Virus record (IMG/VR): IMGVR_UViG_3300033553_000052
Span: 1,205-65,204 of that record
Strand: one strand, 5' to 3'
DNA length: 64,000 nt
From: a virus
Taxonomy: Duplodnaviria > Caudoviricetes
Shown here: positions 5,915 through 58,873 of the stretch, piece by piece
Layout of the letters: every line of letters starts with the position of its first letter
How positions within the stretch are numbered: the first letter of the stretch is position 1
Program-made: the position numbers and the translations under genes
Notes under the pieces: model-generated
Database searches by the model: none
The model's input: the letters and a program-made list of their open reading frames with translations, nothing else
What the model was told of the DNA's origin: nothing

Positions 5915-6380
5915 TGTGTCAACTGGGAAAACCCGCCAGCAAGCCAAAACAGTGACGTATTGTTGACGATACCGTTGACGAAATTATTTGGAGCATAAGC
6001 CCTGGTAGATGTCACAATGGGGCGCCGACGATGGCCCGAAAATGGATTTCGTCATCGCCAAAGCCAAAGTTTGGAAAAGCGTCTGTATTGTTTTGATGAG
6101 TCTGGCTGTATGACGAACCAGGTGCTTTTCTGTGGGGGGACACTAACTTCGGTACGTCGGCGTTGACACATAGAGAAATACTATATATGTTCTTATACTA
6201 TCTCTATATCTACTAGGTACTATACACATAATAATATCGTCAACGGTTATGGCAACAATACGGCAACGATACGTCAACGGACTTACTAGGATGATGACGA
6301 TACACGACGACTTCCCTATGGATGCCACTCGTGGGAACGTACAGGGGGGACGGGACATTCAAGACTTCGGTTGACATAAC
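5915..6380. other. candidate replication origin / control region
   Basis: Repeated GTTGAC/GTCAAC motifs; 28-bp imperfect inverted repeat 5954-5981/6237-6264; AT-rich tract ~6170-6238; between divergent operons. Confidence 0.5.
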
Positions 6381-7023
6381 GACTGTGACACTACGCATTT
6401 GGTAGCAGATCACGTAGCGATCGACTTTGCAAAAGAAGAGTCTTGAAAAATTTGATATGTACCGAGGCGTGGAAGAGGGAAGCGGGGGCCGGGGGGTCCG
6501 GATTTTATTGAACCTTTACCATTCTTTGCCAAACCTTTAATTCCCCGTTGGTGCCGATAATGAACGCTATCGGCACAATTACGCAACGCGGGCATTGCGT
6601 AATTCGATCTTTTGTTGCGACTCGCGACATATGTTTGCATGCCGCGCCTAGTAGGACAGGACCGGGCGAGCACGCTCCAGCGCGCGCCACGTCACGCCGC
6701 GCGCCGATATCGCGCGTACGGGCCTCCCGTGTGCCTCCTGGTGTGATCGTGCCCGGAAAACATTCCATGCCAGTACGCGGCAACCTAGCGCCTCTTGGTA
6801 AAAGTTTGACAAGTCGGGTAAAGGTTTGGTATTTGGGGTAGACACGCCTCCCCGGAAGTGATAGTCTTTGGTTATAACAAAATATAGACGCTAGGGAATT
6901 GACGCGGACGCCTCGCTCAGGCGGGGACGCATGTTCTCGGTTAGTCTGTTTTGTTATATCGCACGAAATTTTTACGGCACGACAAGACAGGTGTACTCTC
7001 ACTCTAGTAACGGAGGCTTGGTC

Positions 7024-9646: not shown

Positions 9647-10474
9647 ATGGCAAAGACTGCCAAGCAGGACGAGATCGAAGTTGAAGTGACCGAGGTCGAG
9701 GTTGCCGAAGAGGCGATTGACCTCACCGCGTTCGAGACTGCCGTTAGCGCGGCAGTGGCTGGCGCCGACGAGAACACGGGCGAGGTGCCCGAGGTCGGCG
9801 TGGCGGCAGTGCGGGACGCGTACCAGGCTCTGCCCGGTATCAAGGCGAAGAACGCCGCGAAGGCGAGCCTGAGCGACCAGCTCAAGCAGCACCTGGCTGA
9901 CATGAAGATTGTGGAAGCCCGGAGCGTCATGGTCCTGACCGAGCGGGCAACGGTGGCGGGCAAGTCGAGCGCTCCGAAGCGCGAGGTTGACTACCAGGAG
10001 CAGTTCGAGTCGAAGGTTGCGACCCTCACCCTCGCCCTGTACCTGGCCCAGAAGCAGGTCCCCGAAGGCGTCGATGCCGAGGCCGGAATTGCCAAGGCAA
10101 CCTCCCTCGCCGGAGAGGCGTTCCCCGAGGCCCTCGACGTCATGGCCGATGAGGACTCCGAGACGGAGAGCGCGCTGATCAAGGCGGCTGTCAAGTTGGC
10201 AACCTCGAAGGCCCGCAAGGGTGGCACCCGAGTCTCGTCCGGCGAGCGCCGGGACCTCGGAGCGCACATCTCGGAAGCGTTCGACTCGGTTGAGTCGGGC
10301 GTGTTCCTGAGCGTCGCGGCCATCAAGAAGTTCAAGGGGAGCGTGTACGGCGACGACCAGCCCTCGGCTGGTGCCATCACGAACCGTCTCGAGCCGAAGT
10401 CGGGCAAGCCTACCACGATCGACGGCGTGACTGTCGAGCACCGTGACGGCAAGCTGGGCGCGGTCAAGAACTAG
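9647..10474 (+). CDS. Ala/Glu/Lys-rich protein, probably highly expressed; possible C-terminal winged helix
   Basis: Strong G/C third-position bias; C-terminal QPSAGAITNRL motif. Confidence 0.8.
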   Translation: MAKTAKQDEIEVEVTEVEVAEEAIDLTAFETAVSAAVAGADENTGEVPEVGVAAVRDAYQALPGIKAKNAAKASLSDQLKQHLADMKIVEARSVMVLTERATVAGKSSAPKREVDYQEQFESKVATLTLALYLAQKQVPEGVDAEAGIAKATSLAGEAFPEALDVMADEDSETESALIKAAVKLATSKARKGGTRVSSGERRDLGAHISEAFDSVESGVFLSVAAIKKFKGSVYGDDQPSAGAITNRLEPKSGKPTTIDGVTVEHRDGKLGAVKN

Positions 10475-10479
10475 CACGA

Positions 10480-10650
10480 ACCAGCCCCTCCTAGCCAAGG
10501 CCTGAGGTCTTGTGCCAGGCTAGGAGGGGCGGGGCGGTGAGACTCGGTTAGCCGAGGTCTCTAGGCTCAAAGCCAGCCGTCCCGCGCAGTAAGAAAGCCG
10601 GAGGTGCATCATGCCCTGACTGCCAGCAAGACTGCAAACATAACTGAATA
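10480..10650 (+). ncRNA. structured non-coding segment (RNA-B 5' part)
   Basis: 13-bp stem GCCCCTCCTAGCC/GGCTAGGAGGGGC, then a multibranch GGGGCGGT/GCCGTCCC enclosing two hairpins; no ORF. Confidence 0.45.
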
Positions 10651-10655
10651 GTTTG

Positions 10656-10775
10656 GTGAGCGTGCGTTCTCATAAACAACTCAACCCCCCCTGAGCTGAC
10701 CTACCGAGGACGTAAGGCGGCGACTAGTCTCCATAGACACAGTAGCCAGGCAGGTTCGAGTCCTGCCACGCTCGC
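10656..10775 (+). ncRNA. tRNA-like element 1 (non-canonical)
   Basis: T-arm GGCAGG-TTCGAGT-CCTGCC (10749-10767); 3' strand ACGCTCGC pairs with GTGAGCGT (10656-10663); enlarged core, no standard anticodon loop, no encoded CCA. Confidence 0.6.
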
Positions 10776-10813
10776 GAGTTACATCAAGACTTTTCCCTCG
10801 TCCGGGAAGAGGT

Positions 10814-10904
10814 TAGGCCGAGCGAGGTTCACAATCTACCCGTGAACTGTCGCGAGGAGCCATCTCCCTAGGGTGGCAGTCAGGTTCGATTCCTGACCGG
10901 CCTA
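10814..10904 (+). ncRNA. tRNA-like element 2 (non-canonical cloverleaf)
   Basis: 7-bp acceptor TAGGCCG/CGGCCTA; long arm GGTTCAC/GTGAACT; arm GCCATC-TCCCTAG-GGTGGC; T-arm GTCAGG-TTCGATT-CCTGAC. Confidence 0.65.
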
Positions 10905-11005
10905 CGCGGAACAAGCAACAAGCAAGAGGCTGGACATTTTCTAGCGGGTAGGCTAGTACCAGGCTCGACTTGACAAACAACCAGAGTTAGGGTAAAGGTG
11001 CAATC

Positions 11006-11932
11006 GTGAACGATCAGACTCCAAAGTTCGAAGAACAGATGAGCGGCGTGACTTACGGCTCAGGAGAGCCGCACGGCATTCTGTGCGGGAAGGGCCACAG
11101 GCATGCCACCGTTGAGGCAGTGCGAGCATGCTACGGGAGCGACGCGAACGCGGCGCGGTCCTGGGACAGCCCCAGCGGCATGCCGCGCGCGGTCCCGGTC
11201 CCCCCGGACATGGCCCTGGCAGGGGCTACACGTCCCTCTGTAGCGTCCGGCGACACTAGGCGCGTGATACATACCAGCGCGGCTCCAACGGACGCCCAGC
11301 GCGATACCGTGAAGCGGCTCGGCGGCACGATTCCCGAGGATGCCACGCGACTCCGCGCGAGTCAGATCATTGACCGGCTGATCGAGATGAAGGAGACTCG
11401 TGACCGTCGCCTCAAGGAGCAGGCTGACGAGGAGGATGCCGCGCCGAAGTTCCACAGCACTAGCCTGGGACTGCCCGCAGAGATGTTGTTCTCAATTAGG
11501 GAGGGCAGGTACGCGGTCAGTGTCGAAGGCACCAAGCGCCTGGACTTCGTGCGAATCTCACACATCAAGGCGCGACCCGGCAAGCAGGTCAGGTTCGCGG
11601 GATGCATGCGAGTGCAGACCCAGCACGGCGAACAACTCAAGGAGCGTGCGATTATCTCACCGAAGGGCGAGGTGCGGCTCATGAGCCAGACGATGCCAGC
11701 CGAGTACCTCACGAAGATCTTCATGCTGATCATTGTTGACCAGCGGAGTACGGCCATCCTGTATGGCCGGGAGAAGGGTCAGTGCTGCCGGTGCGGCAAG
11801 CAGTTGACTGACGAAAGGTCCCGCCACTATGGCATCGGCCCCGAGTGCGAGAAGCACTTGCCCGAGATCATTGACGAGTTGGACGAAGCCGAGGGCGTGT
11901 ACGTGCCCGGACAGATGCTCGAGGAGGCGTAG
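11006..11932 (+). CDS. DUF6011-like zinc-finger domain protein
   Basis: C-terminal CCRCGKQLTDERSRHYGIGPEC motif. Confidence 0.75.
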   Translation: MNDQTPKFEEQMSGVTYGSGEPHGILCGKGHRHATVEAVRACYGSDANAARSWDSPSGMPRAVPVPPDMALAGATRPSVASGDTRRVIHTSAAPTDAQRDTVKRLGGTIPEDATRLRASQIIDRLIEMKETRDRRLKEQADEEDAAPKFHSTSLGLPAEMLFSIREGRYAVSVEGTKRLDFVRISHIKARPGKQVRFAGCMRVQTQHGEQLKERAIISPKGEVRLMSQTMPAEYLTKIFMLIIVDQRSTAILYGREKGQCCRCGKQLTDERSRHYGIGPECEKHLPEIIDELDEAEGVYVPGQMLEEA

Positions 11933-11934
11933 TC

Positions 11935-12258
11935 ATGGGACTCGAGTTCAGGTTCGCACAGCCCGACAAGCAAGAGCTGATGCCGTACTACATGGAGGTG
12001 ACTGTGTGGGAGAATGGCATTGGAGACCTTCTCGATGAGTTGATGTCCGGCGCGGCTAAGGCGCTCACCTTCATCCCGCCGTCGAGGCAGGTCGGCAACC
12101 TGTACATGACTCAAGCCGGCGAGAACGAATGGGAAGTGTGGGACTCGTGGGGAGGTAATCCTAACGACATGCCAGTTCATTACCTCAAGGACGCTAAAGA
12201 CTTCCCGAACTATGTGATGTTTGAGATACCCGAGGCGGCATGGAAGGGAGTGAGGTAG
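11935..12258 (+). CDS. hypothetical protein
   Basis: GGAGG RBS; operonic. Confidence 0.75.
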   Translation: MGLEFRFAQPDKQELMPYYMEVTVWENGIGDLLDELMSGAAKALTFIPPSRQVGNLYMTQAGENEWEVWDSWGGNPNDMPVHYLKDAKDFPNYVMFEIPEAAWKGVR

Positions 12259-12259
12259 C

Positions 12260-12585
12260 GTGCTCAAATGGGAATAGATAAAGACCTGTCAGGGCAGGGC
12301 TGGTAGACGCGGGGAAGCGTAGATCAGCAAAGACCAATAGGCCCTGAGCGGCGTTACCTCCTCGTGCTGAGGGCGGGGAGGTAACGCGAGGGGAGATAGC
12401 CGCTCCATCAGCGTGACCTGGCAGGCATGCCGGGGCGTCCTGAGAAAAAGGCTGACTGGTAAGTGATCGGAAGCCACAGTGTGAGCTGTGTGAATCTGAA
12501 GACGCTTGTAGATCGGACTCGACTATCTCTCAAACTGAAGTCCAAAGTGAGCACCTCGAGAGAGCGATGGTGTTCGGCCAGTCGG
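12260..12585 (+). ncRNA. candidate large structured RNA (RNA-C) with pseudoknot
   Basis: 15-bp hairpin 12351-12387; closing helices 12285-12293/12417-12425 and 12452-12459/12578-12585; GTGA (GNRA) tetraloop 12475-12490; long-range pair 12391-12399/12523-12531; G.U pairs on plus strand. Confidence 0.65.
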
Positions 12586-12716
12586 AGGGTAAAGGATTAC
12601 GGCGAGACAACAAGGGGCTCGCAACGTTTGCATAGTGCGGTTCGGAGTTCTAAGTGGCTGGTCCCATTCTCCGTCGTTGCCAGAGATGCAGGAGGGTTCG
12701 ACTCCCTCCCCCTCCA
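12584..12716 (+). ncRNA. tRNA-like element 3, resembling a tmRNA tRNA-like domain
   Basis: GGAGGG...CCCTCC-A acceptor; stemless TAAAGGATT D-loop; helix 12599-12606/12669-12677; T-arm GGAGGG-TTCGACT-CCCTCC. Confidence 0.55.
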
Positions 12717-12768
12717 CGTGAACCTACCAACGAGTCTGATTACTAAGCGATACAAGTATCGCAAAGCC

Positions 12769-13305
12769 ATGGGTATAGAACTATACGAACAGATGTGGAA
12801 GACCAAGAGGAAGATCGAATACTTCTTTGACCTAGGCTTCTCGTGTGAGTCAATAGCCAGCGGGACAGACACGGCGCAGGCTACCGTACACAACTGGCTT
12901 ACCGGCGCTCATCCTCGAATTGAGATCGTGAACGCGAATAAGGTTAGGGCCTTGACTGTTGGCGTATTGTTCGATAGGGCGCCGGACAAGAGCAAGGTGC
13001 CCGTGTACGCAACGAGGCGAAGGGTTGAAGCCCTCCGTCGCCTTGGATGGACGACACGCGACATTGAAGCGCGAATGATTGTCAGCTGTAAGGTTAGCAA
13101 TACACTCAAGAATAGTAAGCAGGTTCGGGCGAGTGTCCATCGGGATATCGCCAGGGTGTATGCAGAACTTGAGCACAAGAAAGGTTCTTCGTTGCGCGGT
13201 GCCATGCAATCAGCAAGGCAGTTGATACCACCGCCAGCGGCCTGGGAAGACATAGACGACCCGCGAGGATGGCCTCGTGGAGTTACAAACGAGATACTCA
13301 TTTAA
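12769..13305 (+). CDS. HTH DNA-binding protein (actinophage type)
   Basis: HTH ESIASGTDTAQATVHNW plus TRRRVEALRRLGWT...PPAAWEDIDDP; start 12769 preferred over 12463. Confidence 0.7.
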   Translation: MGIELYEQMWKTKRKIEYFFDLGFSCESIASGTDTAQATVHNWLTGAHPRIEIVNANKVRALTVGVLFDRAPDKSKVPVYATRRRVEALRRLGWTTRDIEARMIVSCKVSNTLKNSKQVRASVHRDIARVYAELEHKKGSSLRGAMQSARQLIPPPAAWEDIDDPRGWPRGVTNEILI

Positions 13306-21960: not shown

Positions 21961-22544
21961 TGGCGAAGCGACAGTACCCAGGCATGAGGACCAGTGTGCA
22001 ACGGGCCAACAAAGTGTCCGAGAATAAGTTGGCTTGGGTAAAGATCAATACGATTACAATGTCGTTCTTCAGGCAAGACGGAGAGTTCCTTGAGGGGCTT
22101 CCCGAGTCAGAAGATATCAGAGCAGAGTATCGTGGATACACTGAAGATGATGGGGACCAGATGGTTCTCACGGTTGAGACATATAACTCATTGTCGTCCA
22201 TCCCGCTTAGCGAGATGACGTACAATGAACTCATGACACTCAAGATGTTTGTGTCAACAGCAATTGATGAAGCATTGCCTGTCGCGAGTGTGCGTGACAG
22301 GCTGTCACAGGAGGCATTAGATGATTACGGCGACGATTCTAACGCAAGAATCTATAGATCAGTTCCTGAACTATTTGTCCGAAAGGGGAAGGGCGGCGAA
22401 TACAATCAGAGCATATGGGAGCGATCTGCGGGGTCTTATGCAATGGTCAAGTTCCCCGGTAGAGCAAGACAACTTCCAGACGATGACGGCGCGGTGGCTC
22501 AACGACACGAGGGCGACGGCATCCCCGAAGACGACTTGTCGTAG
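21960..22544 (+). CDS. hypothetical protein overlapping recombinase gene by 224 nt
   Basis: TAATG coupling to upstream gene; fills the gap before the recombinase. Confidence 0.65.
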   Translation: MAKRQYPGMRTSVQRANKVSENKLAWVKINTITMSFFRQDGEFLEGLPESEDIRAEYRGYTEDDGDQMVLTVETYNSLSSIPLSEMTYNELMTLKMFVSTAIDEALPVASVRDRLSQEALDDYGDDSNARIYRSVPELFVRKGKGGEYNQSIWERSAGSYAMVKFPGRARQLPDDDGAVAQRHEGDGIPEDDLS

Positions 22545-23139
22545 GCTTGTATCCGCGAAGTCATACGCCAAGTGGTCTGGGATTGGAAACATTCTCGATG
22601 ACTACAAGGCCCCGACGCCTGGACGAGCAATGCCGCACCCGCTCCCCGAAGGTATCGAGGGCGTGAAGCTCATGTGTCAGTCCACTAACGACCCCAGCAA
22701 GCGCGCTTTGTTTGCGTTGCAGGGAATGGCTGGCCTACGAGTAAGTGAGGCGCGATCACTGCACAGCGACAACATTGATATCCAAGACATGATGCTTACT
22801 GTGCGCGGTAAGGGTGACAAGACGCGGGCTGTTCCAATATCCAACTCGGCGTGGCCCTTCGTTCTCGATGCGTACAAGGCGTCACTAGAATCTGGCATGC
22901 CGCTTGTTAACCTATCCGACCGTGGGGCACGTAAGGCAGTGACGGCGGCGGGACATGCGCTAGGATTCAAGCGTGACATTTCCAGCCACGACCTGCGTGC
23001 GACTGGCGCCACCCACCTGTACAACCAGACCAAGGACATCAGGGTTGTGCAAGAGTTTCTAGGTCACGCAAGTTCGGTTACAACGCAAGTCTATACCGGC
23101 ATCTCAATAGACGCAATGAGGAAAGGACTCGAGTTCTAA
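22321..23139 (+). CDS. tyrosine recombinase (XerC/D-like)
   Basis: N-terminal FLNYL.ERG..NTIRAY..DL; catalytic GLRVSE, GKGDK, HDLR, LGH and TQVY; CAGGAGG RBS. Confidence 0.9.
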   Translation: MITATILTQESIDQFLNYLSERGRAANTIRAYGSDLRGLMQWSSSPVEQDNFQTMTARWLNDTRATASPKTTCRRLVSAKSYAKWSGIGNILDDYKAPTPGRAMPHPLPEGIEGVKLMCQSTNDPSKRALFALQGMAGLRVSEARSLHSDNIDIQDMMLTVRGKGDKTRAVPISNSAWPFVLDAYKASLESGMPLVNLSDRGARKAVTAAGHALGFKRDISSHDLRATGATHLYNQTKDIRVVQEFLGHASSVTTQVYTGISIDAMRKGLEF

Positions 23140-57631: not shown

Positions 57632-58873
57632 TTACAGTGTGAAATCAGGATCGAGGGCAACGAGCTTCTTGTAGGAAGCCATTTCCTTGATCGACTCGGG
57701 TGACTTGCCAGCGCGTCGGTGCTGCTGCACCGTTCCACGCAGGATCTCAACTTGGTCGTCCTTTACCGCTTCCTCGGCGCTTGCGCTACCGACACGGAAC
57801 TGATCGACCTTGCCAAGAACGGGGTTGACGGGCGCAACGACCTGCGCGGCCTGCCATGCGATGAACTGATCTTCGCTCAAGCTCTTTGCGAACTCGACCG
57901 TTGAGTCAGTGTTCGACGCGAGAATCTTTCCATCGTTGACGAGTCCGTTAACGAACTCGACGCGGGCAGCCTCGATGGTCTCCTTGCGGAACGCCTCGAG
58001 GACGCTGATGTGTTGCTGAACAGCTGCGTAGTCCTGAACCTGCTTGCCCTCGAGGGCGAACGACATAACACCGTTCTCCTGTGAGTGCTTCACGACGGGC
58101 TGAGCTGCGACAACAGGCTCTTCTACTGCCGGTGCCACAGCGGGAGCCGAGTGTGCTGAAACTTCAGGCACAGCCGGAACCACGGGAGCGGTGGGCAGCG
58201 TCGGAGCAACAGGCGTAATTACCTGCTGATCTGCTGACATGCTTTCCTCCTCAATGATCCTAGTGTTGCTATTGCTCTTCGAAAAACCATTCAAGCCCTC
58301 AACGGCTGGAATGTCAACATACGCCACGCCGAAGTACACGGGGAAATACTCTGCGCCGTCGTTCGTGATGTAAGTTCCCACTTCAGCGGAACGGTTCCGC
58401 CAAAGGCCCGACTTGATTGCCTTCTGAGCCTCGGGGTCGAGGATCTCATAAGACGCGATGAGGTAGTCGTAGTTGTTACCGTCGTGAGTGCTTTCACGAT
58501 TCTCCACGGTAAGACCGTTGTGATATCCAACGACCTTTCCGTTTCCTTCCTGACCACTAACAAGGAAGCCTGGGTGTCCAGATCGAACCGGAACGTCGGC
58601 AAGAATGTTGCGGCTACGAAGCATGTTGTAGTTACTCGCCATCGAGTCCAGGTGCATGCGCTCCCATGTGTTGCGCCTGCCCATGCTGTCTTCGAAGCTT
58701 CCTGACCGGAAGACGGCGACGTCACTTACCGTAAGGACCGTGTCGCCAGCTTCGTTCTTCGAGAACGTGAGCTTTGGCGCGAGACCCTTGGCAATGTCGC
58801 CGACGCTGAACATCATTGACGATGCCGTGGCGATTGGTCCTTGCAGTGTTTCAGTACTCATAGTGGTGTTCAC
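57632..58873 (-). CDS. capsid maturation protease / scaffold
   Basis: G.H...VG...SAE...GVA.VDIPAV.GL (Mu gpI-like protease pattern) followed by Ala/Pro-rich scaffold region. Confidence 0.75.
   Translation of the reverse strand: MNTTMSTETLQGPIATASSMMFSVGDIAKGLAPKLTFSKNEAGDTVLTVSDVAVFRSGSFEDSMGRRNTWERMHLDSMASNYNMLRSRNILADVPVRSGHPGFLVSGQEGNGKVVGYHNGLTVENRESTHDGNNYDYLIASYEILDPEAQKAIKSGLWRNRSAEVGTYITNDGAEYFPVYFGVAYVDIPAVEGLNGFSKSNSNTRIIEEESMSADQQVITPVAPTLPTAPVVPAVPEVSAHSAPAVAPAVEEPVVAAQPVVKHSQENGVMSFALEGKQVQDYAAVQQHISVLEAFRKETIEAARVEFVNGLVNDGKILASNTDSTVEFAKSLSEDQFIAWQAAQVVAPVNPVLGKVDQFRVGSASAEEAVKDDQVEILRGTVQQHRRAGKSPESIKEMASYKKLVALDPDFTL

Follow-up and report, generated by a model that had tools for sequence, protein, structure and literature searches.

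The acceptor/T-arm half of a tRNA is the part that RNase P and RNase Z recognize, as does the CCA-adding enzyme, and it is this half that is kept by three modules (M1, M2 and M3) encoded on the + strand of a 64-kb stretch of DNA, hereafter the window, out of the 65,204-bp IMG/VR virus record IMGVR_UViG_3300033553_000052 of an uncultured actinobacteria-type phage. Among the RNAs with which these modules can be compared, mascRNA is eukaryotic, and RNAC and RNAD of phage T4 have tRNA-like ends. The latter two are small non-tRNA RNAs of the phage tRNA region, whose roles are given as still unknown in the accounts that treat them (PMC3014915, PMC9697503). Mycobacteriophage DS6A has a transfer-messenger RNA (tmRNA)-like RNA that is reduced to the tRNA-like domain (TLD), with an acceptor, a D-loop analogue and a T-arm and with no anticodon arm in its published description (PMC4131195). 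The YrlA-type Y RNAs, reported in mycobacteria and mycobacteriophages, are tRNA mimics with a T-arm, some of which are cleaved by RNase P and CCA-tailed; their tRNA-like domain is permuted, the 5' and 3' ends forming the Ro-binding stem (PMC4201824). RNase P has been reported to process other non-tRNA substrates as well, including the phage M3 RNA (not to be confused with module M3), the C4 RNA and mRNAs (PMC11143913), and the abundant early non-coding RNAs reported for cluster A mycobacteriophages (PMC5712189) are also among the nearest matches in the literature. No description of elements such as M1-M3 in actinobacteriophages was found in literature searches.

M1-M3 resemble T4 RNAC and RNAD in their setting, since the corresponding slot of a relative, Rhodococcus phage Perlina, is filled by tRNAs, but they share no sequence with them, give no such Rfam match and come from a phage of another host phylum. 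Unlike YrlA-type RNAs, for which the modules give no Rfam match even at E<=10, their 5' and 3' ends pair as an acceptor beside the T-arm and not as the permuted Y RNA stem, and profile searches of the phage record for a TROVE gene (PF05731) were negative, as were those for CCA-enzyme and RtcB genes. The feature is real and non-canonical, and the best reading is that M1-M3 are tRNA-derived, non-decoding mimics. They are in all probability genuine, selected tRNA-like structures in which a coaxial acceptor/T-arm minihelix with a consensus T-loop has been kept, while the D-arm and the anticodon arm have been replaced by idiosyncratic helices.

In each module CA is followed by a T-stem around a loop that reads TTCGAGT in M1, TTCGATT in M2 and TTCGACT in M3, the three T-arms being GGCAGG TTCGAGT CCTGCC (10749-10767), GTCAGG TTCGATT CCTGAC (10879-10897) and GGAGGG TTCGACT CCCTCC (12691-12709), all on the + strand. 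A repeat search recovered them as one 19-nt direct-repeat family, and the pattern GGTTCRANTCC has exactly three matches in the 64 kb, all on the + strand and all at M1-M3, against an expectation of 0.21 per shuffled window (none of 100 shuffles reached three). Sites picked up elsewhere in the window by a relaxed expression (1436, 29365, 37152 and 49054) were discarded as chance matches, being without GG..CC closing pairs and located either within open reading frames (ORFs) or on the other strand. Abutting the T-stem in each module is an acceptor-like helix whose 5' strand lies 89-132 nt upstream and which comprises eight contiguous pairs in M1 (as many are found in 201 of 5000 shuffles of the 247 nt upstream), seven in M2 (516 of 5000) and six in M3 (1456 of 5000); taken together, these counts make the acceptor helices jointly improbable. 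None of the three modules has lost any of its 12-13 stacked pairs or departs from the T-loop consensus, and the stems are perfectly Watson-Crick. The T-arms, the CA and the stacked stems are thus as the first-pass annotation of this DNA had described them, down to stems that differ in sequence and keep their pairing. Two of its other proposals fared less well. The motif TCTCC, which it had noticed in the arm before each T-stem, is indeed present in all three modules but carries no meaning, since at least one 5-mer is shared in 568 of 2000 shuffles. Similarly, the shared architecture holds for the acceptor/T-arm half but not for the inner segments, which are not significantly similar in any pair (scores as high are reached by 220, 428 and 440 of 500 shuffles) and do not form one sequence family. 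With the inner parts unrelated and TCTCC explained by chance, what unites the 'family' is therefore the acceptor/T-arm half only.

M1 (10656-10775, with a core of 117 nt at 10658-10774) folds with a minimum free energy (MFE) of -45 kcal/mol and a z-score of -3.40 relative to shuffles, and is made up of an acceptor (GAGCGTG/CACGCTC), an inner arm of 7-8 bp, a linker UAAGG, a hairpin preceding the T-arm, the T-arm itself and a discriminator G. M2 (10814-10905) reaches -43 kcal/mol with a z-score of -4.22 (0 of 200 shuffles) and consists of an acceptor of 6-7 bp, (T)AGGCCG/CGGCCT(A), a long arm that spans 32 nt and has a loop of 9 nt, a linker GAGGA, a 19-nt hairpin and the T-arm. The loop of its long arm (10833-10841, AATCTACCC) holds T-CTA, an amber-anticodon-like triplet. 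M3 (12584-12716, 133 nt) has an acceptor GGAGGG/CCCTCC, a 5' motif AAAGGATTACGGC, an inner region of ~84 nt, the T-arm and a discriminator A, and its fold has a z-score of -0.56. Within it, 12621-12635 reads GCA ACG TTT GCA TAG, four codons and a stop with alanine at the start, a faint likeness to a tmRNA tag that is too short to mean much. None of the three encodes a CCA, the tails being G-CGA (M1), C-GCG or A-CGC (M2) and A-CGT (M3).

Of what defines a canonical tRNA, M1-M3 have an acceptor stacked on the T-stem and a 7-nt T-loop of TTCRANY consensus; they have neither a D-arm nor a 5-bp anticodon stem with a 7-nt loop. ARAGORN with default settings called no tRNA and no tmRNA gene in the window, as the first-pass annotation had expected, and none in the region of the modules when introns were allowed at the default threshold. 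No Rfam family reached its gathering score at the modules, and the Rfam tRNA model (RF00005) matched nowhere in the 65,204-nt record even at E<=10. With no call from either ARAGORN or RF00005, the modules are not ordinary tRNAs, and the view that they have no canonical D-arm or anticodon loop and no encoded CCA was borne out. Unusual decoding tRNAs might nevertheless be envisaged. M2 could be a D-arm-less amber suppressor whose long arm of 11-12 bp presents U-CUA in a 9-nt loop, given that its length (91 nt) and arm lengths match those of a class II tRNA and that the loop, AAUCUACCC, contains U-CUA. A 130-nt module of phage ReqiDocB7 (see below) is moreover called by ARAGORN, when introns are allowed, as a tRNA-Thr with a 35-nt intron, albeit one with a poor D-stem. 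However, a 7-nt anticodon loop with U33/R37 is found in none of the three modules, TAG is the commonest stop codon among the window's ORFs of at least 150 aa (25 of 63) and reading through TAG leaves the longest ORF at 1711 aa, all of which makes a role in decoding very unlikely.

Clues to where the modules come from are provided by the neighbourhood and by the T-arms. Upstream of M1 lies a gene (9647-10474, +) encoding what is called here protein A, a phrog_6708 member of unknown function that serves as a synteny anchor and has relatives at 65-77% identity on other contigs. In Perlina, the protein A homologue is followed by tRNA-Asn, tRNA-Met and tRNA-Ile and then by a 128-nt module that ARAGORN leaves uncalled and that combines an acceptor stem with a T-arm and a long inner arm. 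In ReqiDocB7 this slot is taken by the 130-nt module alone, and the whole genome is devoid of canonical tRNAs. The 5' motif GTAGCTGG is common to the modules of these two phages, whose acceptor and T stems have been kept through four double substitutions. The 17-nt core of the M1 T-arm is identical to that of the Perlina tRNA-Met, and the 3' 25-mer of M3 is the end of a class II tRNA-Leu(CAA) of Desulfobacterales, found in a single contig among a genome collection of 185,579 species. The Perlina tRNA slot, the T-arm identity between M1 and tRNA-Met and the 25-mer shared by M3 and tRNA-Leu together make it most plausible that the modules derive from ordinary phage tRNA genes and no longer decode. 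M1-M3 resemble the Perlina tRNAs in slot, strand, T-loop consensus, a 7/5 or 6/6 stack of acceptor and T-stem and the lack of an encoded CCA, but depart from canonical phage tRNAs by having no D-arm and no 7-nt anticodon loop and, in the case of M1 and M3, by their length.

A tRNA 3' end in a phage genome could also be explained by integration, the modules being attP-type fragments that carry the 3' end of a host tRNA gene. The phage does encode a 272-aa tyrosine recombinase (22321-23139, +), and integrative elements are reported to commonly leave or carry partial tRNA genes (PMC9897764). Such an origin is highly improbable, however: both acceptor strands, 5' and 3', are present in each module, there are three modules, 9-12 kb away from the recombinase gene, and the single genomic match of the M3 25-mer (the one 3' end for which genomes were scanned) is not actinobacterial. 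The recombinase (PF00589, 89.8 bits; phrog_1, integrase) is on the short side for an integrase, and no attP of the T-arm type was apparent near its gene.

Two T-arm modules follow the protein A gene in a metagenome relative (L039) too, in an arrangement that echoes the M1-M2 pair. The first (2529-2590) forms a minihelix of 10 bp, has TGGATT in its 15-nt linker and is followed by ACC, and the second (about 2803-2926) is ~124 nt long with an acceptor of only 5 bp. Other T-arm matches among the loci of relatives (L005, L006, L018, L022, L023, L027, L046 and, on the minus strand, L002) were rejected, their T-arms being weak or their acceptors missing or implausible, as was a good T-arm with a 7-pair acceptor in L050 that lies on the minus strand and upstream of the protein A match.

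Uncalled modules of this kind, 38-130 nt in length, are found in four cultured phages, namely Perlina, ReqiDocB7, Gordonia phage Octobien14 and Mycobacterium phage JoeDirt. Together with the window, these genomes contain 18 genes called by ARAGORN and 11 uncalled T-arm modules, of which two (Perlina 59367 and Octobien14 71223) fail the scripted acceptor criterion; shuffled genomes yield 0.05-0.35 T-arm-plus-acceptor matches each. Octobien14 has three mini-modules of 41-44 nt (L052 1703-1746, 2492-2533 and 2826-2868), each consisting of an acceptor, a linker of 10-12 nt and a T-arm and situated on the gene strand in short intergenic gaps of the early region. The 3' end of M2 (T-arm and adjoining bases) matches an unannotated mini-module of this phage over 29 nt at 93%. 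One Octobien14 mini-module also weakly matches the mascRNA model RF01684 (25.3 bits against a gathering score of 42.5). Phages Syleon, Kudefre and Sephiroth have an orthologous module of 56 nt in which the T-stem TGAGG/CCTCA has become TGGGG/CCCCA. When the mini-modules of these four phages are taken with M2, all 36 T-stem cells pair and four of the six pairs change on both sides, a covariation score reached by none of 500 shuffles; this count is limited to the T-stem, the 5' acceptor strands of the mini-modules having been left unaligned by MAFFT. JoeDirt has an unannotated module of 113 nt between tRNA-Lys and tRNA-Asn to which the last 37 nt of M3 are 89% identical. It is present in four near-identical phages as well, with copies that are identical or 99% identical (seven records) and that give no covariation. 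The same phage has a 38-nt module and a 108-nt module (L083 1666-1773), and its modules too lie in short intergenic gaps on the gene strand.

Beyond these phages, IMG/VR scans with each of two flanking proteins returned no relative, and a blastn search of 2.5 kb against phages matched only a 76-nt coding stretch. Exact-pattern IMG/VR scans found only Octobien14's own record for the M2-type 3' end and nothing for the M3- and M1-type 3' ends. Annotation pipelines miss such elements because tRNAs are called with ARAGORN and tRNAscan-SE. Gene calls overlie some of the modules instead: the 108-nt module of JoeDirt lies under gp43, a 45-aa 'hypothetical protein', and those of Octobien14 abut or overlap tiny ORFs such as gp139, calls that may be spurious. 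Octobien14 further has a lone T-arm, GGGGG TTCGATT CCCTC, directly after tRNA-Lys (L061 1495-1520, record ~57721-57746), for which no acceptor partner was found, and a 'nucleotidyltransferase' gene just 5' of its true tRNA cluster. In DS6A, a T-arm followed by ACGGCGC-ACCA (L054 ~6364-6387, minus strand, record ~36.36-36.39 kb) lies on the anti-gene strand of the 330-nt gap between gp50 and gp51; this may be a tRNA 3' fragment, perhaps attP-related.

As for what M1-M3 do, a role as processing handles, which punctuate a transcript and release small stable RNAs, has a chance approaching but not reaching even of being their main function. M1 and M2 lie within the non-coding gap 10475-11005 and M3 within the non-coding gap 12259-12768, all three on the coding strand and both gaps being part of the early-gene region. 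Each gap opens with a structured non-coding leader (+), one located 5' of M1 (10475-10655, z-score -3.78, 0 of 200 shuffles) and the other 5' of M3 (12259-12583, z-score -4.47, 0 of 100 shuffles), and neither leader has a match in Rfam. It is this gene-strand position 3' of structured leaders that favours processing handles and small stable RNAs. The transcription, cleavage and CCA addition that we infer, and any role downstream of them, would proceed as follows. The modules would be co-transcribed with the neighbouring genes, host RNase P would cut at the 5' end of the acceptor stem, and the 3' end would be finished by the CCA-adding enzyme along with either RNase Z or exonucleases. This would punctuate the transcript, the 3' ends of the upstream leaders being set by the modules, and would release stable tRNA-like RNAs of about 90-130 nt. 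In this the modules would be like the mascRNA/MALAT1 handles and RNase P substrates such as the phage C4 and M3 RNAs: a tRNA-like element 3' of a structured RNA would set the 3' end of that RNA via RNase P. The modules of the window have no RF01684 match. More than half of the tRNAs of M. tuberculosis are reported to need CCA added (PMC10673834), which makes the lack of an encoded CCA normal in this host group. If M1-M3 were processed in this manner, tRNA punctuation would have a counterpart in bacterial viruses, and the modules would be a source of abundant early small RNAs in a group of phages common in teaching and therapy collections. The first-pass annotation, which had proposed either processing handles or decoys, went further and saw in the modules part of an 'undescribed RNA-based phage system', which exceeds the evidence.

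Selection on the modules can also be judged in a close relative, of which one metagenome run contains short contigs that are ~90% identical to the window, including one of 255 nt that spans 10749-11006. Relative to the 39-nt spacer between M1 and M2 (10775-10813) it has nine substitutions and two indels, and relative to the 92 nt of M2 it has four listed substitutions (10814, 10821, 10826 and 10848). None of the four is in the acceptor, T or hairpin helices; they affect a base that ends the acceptor stem or lies outside it, a junction base and a G:U pair beside a bulge of the long arm. Several observations nevertheless weigh against selection, processing or both. Two of these changes (10826 G>A and 10848 T>C) turn the G:U pair of the M2 long arm into A:C, up to four further substitutions in the contig are unlisted, and the contigs of this relative reach only the last 26 nt of M1 and none of M3. 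The acceptor helix of M3 is unremarkable alone, and its fold is not significant by itself. The T-stem covariation comes from a set in which orthologues stand beside what may be paralogues or modules of independent origin. When a tRNA gene loses or gains an internal stretch, its two acceptor strands automatically stay in place, so that pairing alone is no proof of selection. Among the 36 loci that extend at least 500 nt downstream of a protein A homologue, only 5, corresponding to four distinct phages, have a + strand T-arm within 3 kb, which implies that the feature is dispensable in most relatives. Lastly, no RNA dataset turned up for 10470-12770, and the one metatranscriptome run of the same study gave 0 contigs on the stretch.

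Several of these points are what would be seen if the modules were decaying tRNA pseudogenes, i.e. functionless remnants of a Perlina-like cluster after internal indels, which together with decoy roles (see below) is the main rival to processing; decoding and attP roles are unlikely. Their slot is syntenic with real tRNAs, their inner parts are mutually unrelated, modules are absent at 31 of the 36 loci, acceptor pairing survives internal indels for free and M3 is weakly structured. However, decay does not readily account for 12-13 stacked pairs and a T-loop consensus that are intact in all three modules when the rest is unrecognizable, nor for inner regions that fold significantly in M1 and M2. 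In the relative just described, M2 is better conserved than the flanking spacer. ReqiDocB7 keeps a long module but no canonical tRNA, and the mini-modules of Octobienvirus, conserved in four phages, show a compensatory change in the T-stem. Finally, the phage has retained about 1 kb of non-coding DNA at the M1-M3 locus although its genome is otherwise compact. Plain decay therefore appears doubtful, and processing remains the favoured role.

A different function is suggested by the partial likeness of M3 to tmRNA. The tmRNA model RF00023 aligns M3 end to end, although at 16.1 bits against a gathering score of 47 (local E 7.4e-4), with the match limited to the ends and 84 nt standing in for 322, and it does the same with the 113-nt module of JoeDirt (15.7 bits), which is a likeness to the TLD of DS6A and of tmRNA. 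At the position of the tmRNA D-loop analogue GGAUUCGAC, M3 has GGATTACGGC, which might just as well have been left over from the D-arm of a class II tRNA. Unlike the TLD-only element of DS6A, which the model locates at 43.2 bits and which has G3:U70, M3 has A3:U70 where the alanine identity pair of tmRNA would be expected, as well as an insert of ~84 nt, and M1 and M2 have no tmRNA-like 5' motif. M3 is thus at most TLD-like in its working and not a member of the tmRNA family. Nor is it the 3' end of a larger tmRNA, since no 5' partner was found upstream and ARAGORN calls tmRNAs only at a relaxed threshold and with implausible tags. A module of locus L047, a candidate relative of M3 that by eye looks like a TLD with G3:U70, is likewise not recognized by the tmRNA model.

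This likeness nonetheless raises the possibility that the modules are decoys or sponges, whose processed and CCA-tailed RNAs, made of a minihelix and an elbow, would titrate a host factor that recognizes the acceptor end or elbow of tRNAs. Candidate targets are the DUF1814 nucleotidyltransferase toxins of the MenT/AbiEii abortive-infection family and, for M3, SmpB in the manner of a tmRNA TLD. In line with such a role, mycobacterial MenT toxins, which are of the AbiEii family, are reported to modify tRNA acceptor ends (PMC7450476, PMC10435456), and what is left in the mini-modules of 38-56 nt is just the part that factors of this kind would recognize. However, apart from the weaknesses of the tmRNA comparison, no cognate host-defence or partner gene was found in the phage, the TROVE, CCA-enzyme and RtcB searches being negative, and nothing ties the modules to any toxin. 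A decoy role therefore seems improbable; if real, it would add an RNA mimic to phage counter-defence. In its broadest and still less likely form, it would make M1-M3 members of a recurrent, unannotated class of 'elbow-only' tRNA mimics in actinobacteriophages. Each would combine a T-arm and an acceptor stem with a linker that carries GG (the body measuring 7 to about 100 nt and the whole 38-133 nt), would be excised by host tRNA-processing enzymes and would decoy readers of the acceptor or elbow (AbiEii/MenT-type toxins or SmpB), amounting to an RNA-based counter-defence.

The genome in which the modules reside has direct terminal repeats in the 65,204-bp record, and the window proteins are 25-38% identical to those of Gordonia, Tsukamurella and Rhodococcus phages of about 75 kb, the relatives by protein identity being Montyvirus-like phages, TIN3/TIN4, ReqiDocB7 and Perlina. 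The gap that holds M1 and M2 contains no + strand ORF of at least 40 aa, and antisense ORFs at the locus offered nothing convincing. The ORF that covers M3 (12463-13305) is an over-extension, for its PHROG match begins at residue 119 and the shorter form scores no worse. That shorter gene, 3' of M3 (12769-13305, +), corresponds to phrog_1590 and has a helix-turn-helix-like N-terminus, and the gene between the two RNA regions (11006-11932, +) has a C-terminal DUF6011 domain and matches phrog_6032; like protein A, neither has an assigned function. Within the leader of M1, a long and near-perfect hairpin (~10483-10530) directly follows the stop codon, like a U-less terminator, and the leader of M3 holds a near-perfect hairpin at ~12351-12387. 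No sigma-70-like promoter was found between 10475 and 10657. Further downstream, the region 5' of the DUF6011 gene (10930-10990, …AGGCTAGTACCA…TTGACA…) resembles that 5' of the ReqiDocB7 homologue (L004 4360-4400), which reads TTGACA-16 nt-TATAGT-CTAGTACCA, and the two may share an early promoter motif.

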